This document shows positions 58,386-59,040 of a stretch of 64,000 nucleotides of DNA, piece after piece. The notes under the pieces were generated by a model that was not told where the DNA came from, searched no databases, and saw nothing but the letters and a program-made list of their open reading frames with translations. Numbering within the stretch: the stretch's first letter is position 1; each line of letters starts with the position of its first letter. The stretch lies in assembly GCF_055900595.2 (NCBI RefSeq), contig NZ_CM148325.1; one strand, written 5' to 3'. The translations under genes and the position numbers were made by a program.

Positions 58386-58652
58386 ATGGACATTAATAAC
58401 AAAGCCCGCATTCACTGGGCATGCCGCCGTGGTATGCGCGAACTCGATATTTCAATCATGCCGTTTTTCGAACATGAGTACGACAGCTTAAGTGATGACG
58501 AAAAACGCATCTTTATTCGTCTGCTGGAATGTGACGATCCCGATCTGTTCAACTGGCTGATGAATCACGGTAAACCGGCCGATGCAGAACTGGAAATGAT
58601 GGTCCGACTCATCCAGACACGGAATCGGGAACGTGGTCCTGTGGCAATCTGA
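58386..58652 (+). CDS. sdhE: FAD assembly factor SdhE, also CptB antitoxin (88 aa)
   Basis: [57 protein letters not shown]... full length. Confidence 0.9.
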
Positions 58653-59040
58653 TTTACGCGTCTCCTGGCGCGCGCAGTGGCTTTCCTTGCTGATTCATGG
58701 GCTGGTTGCCGCTGTTATTTTACTCATGCCCTGGCCGTTAAGTTACACCCCGTTATGGATGGTGTTACTTTCGCTGGTGGTGTTTGATTGCGTTCGCAGC
58801 CAGCGACGCATTAATGCTCGCCAGGGGGAAATTCGCCTGTTGATGGACGGGCGTTTGCGTTGGCAAGGGCAGGAGTGGTGCATCGTCAAAGCGCCGTGGA
58901 TGATTAAAAGCGGCATGATGTTGCGTTTACGTTCTGATAGCGGTAAACGTCAGCACTTGTGGCTGGCAGCCGACAGCATGGACGAAGCCGAATGGCGGGA
59001 TTTACGGCGGATTTTGTTGCAACAAGAGACGCAAAGATAA
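58633..59040 (+). CDS. ygfX: inner-membrane protein YgfX/CptA, toxin-like partner of SdhE (135 aa)
   Basis: Two TM helices; 20-nt overlap with the sdhE 3' end. Confidence 0.85.

Follow-up and report, generated by a model that had tools for sequence, protein, structure and literature searches.

SdhE, also named YgfY, is grouped with Sdh5 and SDHAF2 as a flavinylation factor and is conserved in alpha-, beta- and gamma-proteobacteria and in eukaryotes (PMC5042078). The E. coli protein is represented in the PDB alone (1x6i), with SdhA (6c12) and with FrdA (6b58), and has been shown by others to be a small soluble five-helix protein that binds SdhA and FrdA and promotes the covalent attachment of FAD. 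An E. coli strain deleted for ygfY is viable; it loses SDH activity and does not grow on succinate (PMC5293155). Residues G16 and E19 of the SdhE motif were mutated in a study of the Shewanella protein (PMC8621075).

The gene that follows sdhE in E. coli K-12, ygfX, is also known as cptA, and Pfam labels its family, PF07254, 'Cpta_toxin'. CptA-CptB has been proposed as a type IV toxin-antitoxin (TA) system next to CbtA-CbeA (YeeV-YeeU), to which it bears a likeness in having two small adjacent genes, with a downstream product claimed to perturb FtsZ and MreB and an upstream product claimed to counteract it. As cited in other papers (PMC8621075, PMC3985639, PMC11205521), Masuda 2012 reported that overexpression of YgfX in E. 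coli gives lemon-shaped cells, that YgfX inhibits the polymerisation of FtsZ and MreB, and that YgfY counteracts it. A CptBA-like pair in A. baumannii has been reported as TA-like (PMC8132199), and cptA is listed in TADB and was, according to one report, stress-induced in AIEC (PMC11205521). For Serratia, the Fineran laboratory found no TA phenotype although SdhE and YgfX interact (PMC3985639, PMC5042078). The Shewanella YgfX was non-toxic, also in E. coli BL21, and there was no rescue by YgfY; in two-hybrid assays neither protein bound FtsZ or MreB, and the two did not interact with each other (PMC8621075).

A second group of described systems is formed by translationally coupled genes that overlap. 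The enriched spacings in such pairs are -4, -1 and -8, and in reporter work the efficiency of coupling declines steadily as the overlap lengthens from -4 to -25 nt, where it is nil (PMC12548453).

The sdhE-ygfX locus

We analysed a stretch of 64,000 nt from contig NZ_CM148325.1 (the window). An earlier reading made from the letters without database searches (the sequence-only reading) had named one gene pair sdhE-ygfX, or cptB-cptA, and had noted that an 88-aa SdhE frame overlaps the start of ygfX by 20 nt. The open reading frames, the RefSeq annotation of the closest genome and profile matches bear out the identity, and the overlap is confirmed by the sequence and by the same annotation (Table 1).

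SdhE matches the Sdh5 family PF03937 (E value 5e-26; 90.8 bits, cut-off 27) and, over residues 1-88 of 88, the NCBIfam equivalog NF008130 (1e-59; 198.4 bits, cut-off 120). This full-length equivalog match and the RGxxE motif are shared with the SdhE/Sdh5/SDHAF2 factors; as a point of difference, the last six sdhE codons here double as the start of ygfX. Residues 2-131 of YgfX align to positions 1-132 of the 133 positions of PF07254 (4e-49; 166.5 bits, cut-off 27.3), a profile that is matched by all 39 aligned YgfX homologues. Judged by these family matches, which exclude chance reading frames, both are genuine genes.

In the closest genome, NZ_CM177019.1, which is 99.9% identical over 1301 bases around the pair, the RefSeq coordinates of sdhE and ygfX are exactly equivalent; ygfZ lies upstream and divergent, and a convergent fldB is followed by xerD, dsbC and recJ. 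The same 1301-base stretch has a single match per genome in 5425 of 5426 complete E. coli genomes. Genes, order, overlap and neighbours (ygfZ divergent, fldB convergent, xerD downstream) are all those of E. coli K-12, in which the pair is called ygfY-ygfX or cptB-cptA (b2897-b2896). The locus is the known, annotated E. coli operon and is not novel. The SdhE sequence is the same (100% identity) as in other E. coli, YgfX shares 97-99% identity with the common E. coli clusters, and the differences from the K-12 operon are allelic only. Residue 84 of YgfX is Cys, where all E. coli-like sequences compared have Ser; residue 104 is Ser, as in some E. coli YgfX, most of the common ones having Gly. What is added here is the depth to which the -20 overlap and the selected initiation region embedded in sdhE are conserved, genomic evidence against a typical TA module, and the prediction of a PH-like fold for YgfX.

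Table 1. Coordinates in the window of the features discussed in the text
Feature	Position	Strand	Details
sdhE (ygfY/cptB) CDS	58386..58652	+	88 aa, ATG start; ORF list, RefSeq annotation of closest genome, profile matches
ygfX (cptA) CDS	58633..59040	+	135 aa, GTG start; +1 frame relative to sdhE
RGxxE motif of SdhE	58428-58442	+	residues 15-19 (R15-G16-M17-R18-E19)
Dual-coding overlap	58633..58652	+	GTGGTCCTGTGGCAATCTGA; 20 nt; SdhE tail R-G-P-V-A-I-stop, YgfX N-terminus M-V-L-W-Q-S-D
ygfX ribosome-binding region	58617..58632	+	ACACGGAATCGGGAAC; inside sdhE codons 78-82; weak SD-like GGAA/GGGAA; best duplex in the 16 nt upstream of GTG -4.3 kcal/mol
SD-like AGGAAG of sdhE	58377..58382	+	within conserved CAGGAAG 58376-58382 (14-species alignment); duplex -4.3 kcal/mol
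Candidate -10 TACAAT	58345..58350	+	end of conserved block 58314-58351; ~36 nt upstream of ATG; no clear -35
Hairpin between convergent ygfX and fldB	59044..59073		-20.1 kcal/mol, z = -3.5 (minus); -20.9 kcal/mol, z = -1.4 (plus)
insA-like ORF	12383-12658		91 aa
insB-like ORF	12577-13080		167 aa
STnc490 Rfam match	41755-41878		146 bits
IS200/IS605-type TnpA-like ORF	41837-42346		169 aa
SIB RNA (sibC, antitoxin of ibsC)	42629-42779	-	Rfam gathering-level
6S RNA (ssrS)	43428-43611	-	Rfam gathering-level
ES036/CssrF	53514-53556	-	borderline Rfam match, 38.4 bits against cut-off 37.6

The flanks carry a few candidate signals. The columns of TACAAT are invariant or nearly so in a 14-species alignment of the ygfZ-sdhE intergenic region, and this motif is a candidate for the -10 hexamer of an sdhE-ygfX promoter; a strict sigma-70 consensus scan of the locus returned no promoter. 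The hairpin downstream of ygfX is followed by a U-rich run on the minus strand only, the plus strand being without a U-tract, and is therefore likely to be primarily the terminator of fldB. Three predicted terminators lie inside coding sequence and were rejected as within chance (3 found, 1.6 +/- 1.3 expected). An Rfam scan found nothing within the sdhE-ygfX locus. A separate conserved intergenic block at 58173-58207 (ATGGTAAAAGAG...CATTGCAAG.GCTTT), located 40-75 bp upstream of the ygfZ start and containing many columns invariant in 14 Enterobacteriaceae species, may be the ygfZ promoter or a minus-strand operator.

Predicted structure of YgfX

An AlphaFold model of YgfX, built on the 39-sequence alignment, has a mean pLDDT of 94.1 and a pTM of 0.76. 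It consists of a strand (residues 2-8), two helices (12-31 and 36-62), six strands between residues 65 and 112, and a final helix (118-134). The two helices, which are encoded at about 58666-58818 (+), have pLDDT values above 90. Hydropathy also gives two membrane segments, at about residues 14-34 and 36-54, and the two transmembrane helices assigned to YgfX by the sequence-only reading are upheld by both approaches.

The model suggests a membrane hairpin joined to a PH-like beta domain with a C-terminal helix, so that the soluble part looks like a binding module and not like an enzyme. In architecture it resembles bPH proteins of the YdbS/YdbT type, which have two N-terminal membrane helices, a small beta-sandwich and a C-terminal helix cap; the resemblance does not imply kinship. 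Xu et al. are said to have described, in 2010, this combination of two helices, beta-sandwich and C-terminal helix for bPH proteins, which reportedly oligomerise. YgfX is itself multimeric according to the title of McNeil 2013 (cited in PMC3985639). A search by sequence found no solved structure for relatives of YgfX, the family profile giving chance connexin matches against PDB sequences (E 0.2-0.6), and Foldseek returned nothing significant for the model. None of the 39 aligned family members matched the bPH Pfam families, and a literature search found no paper linking YgfX with pleckstrin.

The 20-nt overlap and the ygfX initiation region

No start codon precedes the GTG at 58633 in the ygfX frame. 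Initiation at the next in-frame ATG (M32) would cost the predicted structure its N-terminal strand and its first membrane helix. Position 1 of the PF07254 profile aligns to YgfX residue 2, and most sequences in the 39-homologue alignment, which extends to 26% identity, start at the same point with M-V-x-W-Q/R, S11 being nearly invariant. These observations, together with the selected nucleotides upstream of the GTG described below, identify it at the sequence level as the true ygfX start. Its SD-like element, with strength taken as the anti-SD duplex energy, is weak (Table 1).

With SdhE as query, we collected 80 Enterobacteriaceae loci (the best 80 of 516), one per species, sampling Escherichia, Citrobacter, Salmonella, Enterobacter, Klebsiella, Kluyvera, Cedecea, Buttiauxella and other genera. 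ygfX is immediately downstream of sdhE in 80 of these 80 loci. In all 81 sequences (the window and the best 80 of 516), ygfX starts with GTG and overlaps sdhE by exactly 20 nt, at identities to the query that go down to 69% for YgfX and 86% for SdhE. The overlap 20-mer is almost invariant throughout, its main variant being a change of CCT to CCA in Citrobacter and Salmonella arizonae.

Third codon positions of sdhE have a mean entropy of 1.13 bits over codons 2-77 and of 0.19 bits over codons 78-88 (81 sequences; Mann-Whitney p = 1.4e-7), and no other 11-codon window of the gene reaches a value as low as the latter. The drop starts at about 58617, 16 nt 5' of the GTG, where sdhE alone codes, with third-position values of 0-0.46 bits within the ribosome-binding region; it stops at the sdhE stop codon, and by ygfX codon 8 the third-position entropy has risen again to 1.67 bits. 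Dual coding alone could explain why the overlap itself is invariant. Because the synonymous constraint reaches 16 nt upstream of the overlap, selection acts on an RNA or initiation signal and not on two proteins alone. On the evidence of this alignment, the low-entropy stretch is the footprint of a functional ygfX initiation region within sdhE, plus dual coding. Within the overlap, the YgfX frame is probably the more constrained of the two, since the YgfX N-terminus forms a strand of the predicted fold and the SdhE tail lies outside its domain: the SdhE residues encoded there fall outside the Sdh5 Pfam domain (residues 7-79), and residues 85-88 are outside the construct of 6b58 (residues 6-84).

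The arrangement extends to distant relatives. At E <= 0.001, an exhaustive phmmer search for YgfX homologues yielded no more than 132 representative clusters (50% identity), and many of these are fragments. We sampled the contigs that encode 10 full-length homologues with 27-39% identity and a locus GC of 0.37-0.57. In eight of the 10, ygfX is immediately downstream of sdhE: seven have an overlapping sdhE directly upstream, always with ygfX in the +1 frame, with overlaps of 20 nt (n=5), 14 nt (n=1) and 26 nt (n=1), and one (L090) has a 30-nt spacer. No sdhE was found within 2 kb of the intact ygfX in the remaining two (ygfX at 2001-2444 in L092, from the 1.5-Mb genome CP152425.1, and at 1136-1579 in L093). 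The order ygfZ, sdhE-ygfX, fldB, xerD, dsbC is kept in those distant relatives that have long enough flanks.

Several of the sampled loci show local peculiarities. In L092, ygfX lies 82 nt from the divergent ygfZ, as if an intervening sdhE had been deleted. In the same locus and in L091, nadB (which encodes L-aspartate oxidase, an SdhA/FrdA-family flavoprotein) is convergent with ygfX in place of fldB (2410-4032 (-) and 1305-2975 (-), respectively) and is followed by an ECF sigma factor; nadB of L092 overlaps the 3' end of ygfX by 35 nt. Among the Enterobacteriaceae, Kluyvera genomosp. 3 YDC799 (CP022114.1; L082, 3248-3664) has an intact sdhE and a ygfX with at least two frameshifts, one of them in a G-run (GGGGG to GGGG), which is either a pseudogene or the product of long-read homopolymer errors.

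Like coupled overlapping pairs, sdhE and ygfX are co-directional, and the downstream start lies inside the upstream frame. The spacing of -20 falls outside the classic -1, -4 (NTGA) and -8 classes, at a length where reporter coupling is weak. As coupling falls with longer overlap, this is not the classic coupling geometry, and it may equally act by ribosome occlusion. A ribosome terminating at the UGA (58650-58652) would still cover the GTG, 17 nt upstream; de novo initiation of ygfX would therefore compete with sdhE elongation, and reinitiation would need a short backward move. Translational coupling of ygfX to sdhE, with which the sequence-only reading found the arrangement consistent, is plausible, though the case for it is weak.

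Our preferred explanation, to which we give a probability of about 0.65, is a housekeeping sdhE-ygfX operon whose second product is a low-level partner tied to sdhE translation and not a dedicated toxin. YgfX would be an inner-membrane protein made in small amounts, with an N-terminal strand, a two-helix hairpin and a predicted cytoplasmic PH-like domain, and would most likely serve as a membrane-anchored adaptor or modulator of SdhE; its binding of SdhE has been observed in Serratia (PMC3985639). Translation of ygfX would start from the GTG and the weak SD-like element, both of which lie within the last 36 nt of sdhE. Ribosomes completing sdhE would traverse and then free this start, so that the synthesis of YgfX would be tied to the translation of sdhE. 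The tie could operate through short backward reinitiation, local unfolding or occlusion. Unfolding is unsupported, because the junction RNA is no more stable than shuffled sequence (MFE z = +0.85); the consensus fold of 25 sequences is also weak (-5.4 kcal/mol) and, the region being invariant, shows no informative covariation, and an RNA structure that sequesters the ygfX start was rejected on these values. We infer that the weak start codon and weak SD, combined with occlusion at the -20 spacing, hold the output of YgfX low and link it to sdhE translation. The reported toxicity of YgfX would then be an overexpression effect of a membrane protein, and the 'rescue' by SdhE would reflect the physical or functional link between the two. 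The viability of the E. coli ygfY deletion is to be read with one caveat: by the Keio design, that deletion reportedly retains only the final 21 nt of the gene, which makes the expression of ygfX in the deletion strain uncertain.

A more specific version of this explanation is offered tentatively, with the odds against it. YgfX might act as a PH-like adaptor anchored in the membrane: by docking or sequestering SdhE at the inner membrane, it would tune the timing of SdhA and FrdA flavinylation and of their handover to the membrane subunits. The -20 overlap with its weak GTG and SD might be a dosage device that fixes a low YgfX:SdhE ratio through occlusion and inefficient reinitiation, and the effects on FtsZ and MreB might be artefacts of overexpression.

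The overlap could also be without a regulatory role, a frozen accident of start-codon drift, with ygfX initiating independently at its own weak ribosome-binding site and conservation reflecting double protein-coding constraint only. Longer overlaps couple poorly in reporters (PMC12548453), L090 keeps both genes with a 30-nt spacer, overlaps of 14 and 26 nt exist, the junction RNA is without stable or covarying structure, and the N-terminal strand in the predicted YgfX fold would constrain the codons anyway. Such an accident is nevertheless unlikely in our view, given that synonymous constraint continues for 16 nt upstream, where sdhE alone codes, and that the overlap, with its +1 frame, is still seen at YgfX identities of 27-39% and at GC contents from 0.37 to 0.57. 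As a strictly conserved feature with a selected embedded initiation region, the -20 overlap offers a clean natural test case for how longer overlaps set expression ratios.

A programmed +1 frameshift producing an SdhE-YgfX fusion was considered and rejected, as AUC-UGA-U allows no re-pairing for a +1 shift. Fused SdhE-YgfX reading frames of 166-217 aa occur as singletons in metagenome and Logan assemblies (P0004-P0009, P0012, P0013, P0021). The position of the frame change differs in each of them, which suggests sporadic indels or sequencing errors rather than a natural fusion lineage.

The toxin-antitoxin question and the rest of the window

The sequence-only reading had attributed TA-like behaviour to the pair. 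Such behaviour has been reported once for E. coli, according to the papers that cite Masuda 2012; in Serratia and Shewanella no TA phenotype was found. That reading had also singled out the pair as the only operon of the window with TA-like architecture besides ibsC/sibC. The latter is indeed present, with a SIB RNA found by Rfam (Table 1) and an ibsC annotation at the syntenic position of the closest genome, and the syntenic annotation of the window holds no other annotated TA pair. Co-directional overlap, however, is frequent in that annotation, with 1-8 nt shared in each of five other pairs (ruvX/yqgE, 1 nt; yggP/glpX, 4 nt; fumE/yggC, 4 nt; meaB/scpA, 8 nt; pepP/ubiH, 4 nt), and gene overlap is therefore not diagnostic of a TA system.

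Typical TA modules are patchy or multi-copy and linked to plasmids, prophages or islands, whereas sdhE-ygfX is single-copy, fixed in synteny and essentially off plasmids and phages. The pair occurs on 12 of 72,556 plasmid records, most of which are probably mislabelled, since they are chromosome-sized (0.7-5 Mb). No genuine phage record carries it, both phage matches being non-phage records, and the PADLOC defence-system models gave no match at the locus. A toxin is expected never to be kept without its antitoxin, and in L092 and L093 the 2 kb around the intact ygfX contain no sdhE, though one may lie elsewhere in those genomes. The genomic evidence goes against a typical TA module, and the TA reading is weak.

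Among the plasmid matches are three plasmid-sized PLSDB records with sdhE-ygfX, two from Enterobacter hormaechei (51 kb and 59 kb) and one from Lelliottia amnigena (157 kb); they are possibly misassigned chromosomal contigs.

The paralogues of CbtA-CbeA belong to cryptic prophages of E. coli K-12, according to a title cited in PMC8621075, whereas sdhE-ygfX is core, syntenic and non-mobile. Type IV partners do not bind each other, and the interaction of SdhE and YgfX in Serratia therefore contradicts the type IV definition; the TA phenotype, moreover, was not reproduced in two other genera. In a bona fide type IV system, the membrane-bound CptA toxin would block FtsZ and MreB polymerisation, SdhE (CptB) would shield these targets, and the overlap would keep the antitoxin first and in excess. 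The bicistronic layout, with the antitoxin first and an overlap, fits this scheme, as do the E. coli result of Masuda 2012 in the form in which it is cited, the A. baumannii homologues that act as a TA pair, the name 'Cpta_toxin' of PF07254, and the TADB listing and reported stress induction of cptA in AIEC. Yet SdhE has an independent, structurally proven function and is conserved to eukaryotes, and an SDH defect is all that the viable E. coli ygfY deletion shows. The Serratia proteins interact without a TA phenotype, the Shewanella pair shows neither toxicity nor rescue nor interaction with FtsZ or MreB, solo ygfX genes exist, and the soluble domain of YgfX is predicted to be a PH-like binding module and not an enzyme. 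We consider it quite improbable that sdhE-ygfX is a bona fide type IV TA module.

The practical value of this result lies in annotation: PF07254 and the TA databases label the pair as toxin and antitoxin, and the evidence assembled here favours a housekeeping respiratory-assembly operon. In view of its core status, its synteny, the absence of linkage to mobile elements, the solo ygfX genes and the predicted PH-like fold, censuses of E. coli TA systems should leave this locus out.

Elsewhere, the window differs from the closest genome by mobile elements. An IS1 insertion at 12354-13091, in the speA-speB region, contains insA- and insB-like reading frames (Table 1) and is absent at that position in NZ_CM177019.1. 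About 760 bp at 41744-42505, between serA and sibC/ibsC, are also missing from that genome; a TnpA-like reading frame of the IS200/IS605 type and an STnc490 match lie there. The window has no copy of IS621, of which NZ_CM177019.1 (strain RMDEC465) carries four identical copies in the 67.5 kb of the region that were read, one of them between trhA and ygfZ. Identity between the window and NZ_CM177019.1 is a mosaic, ranging from 96.0 to 99.1% by block.
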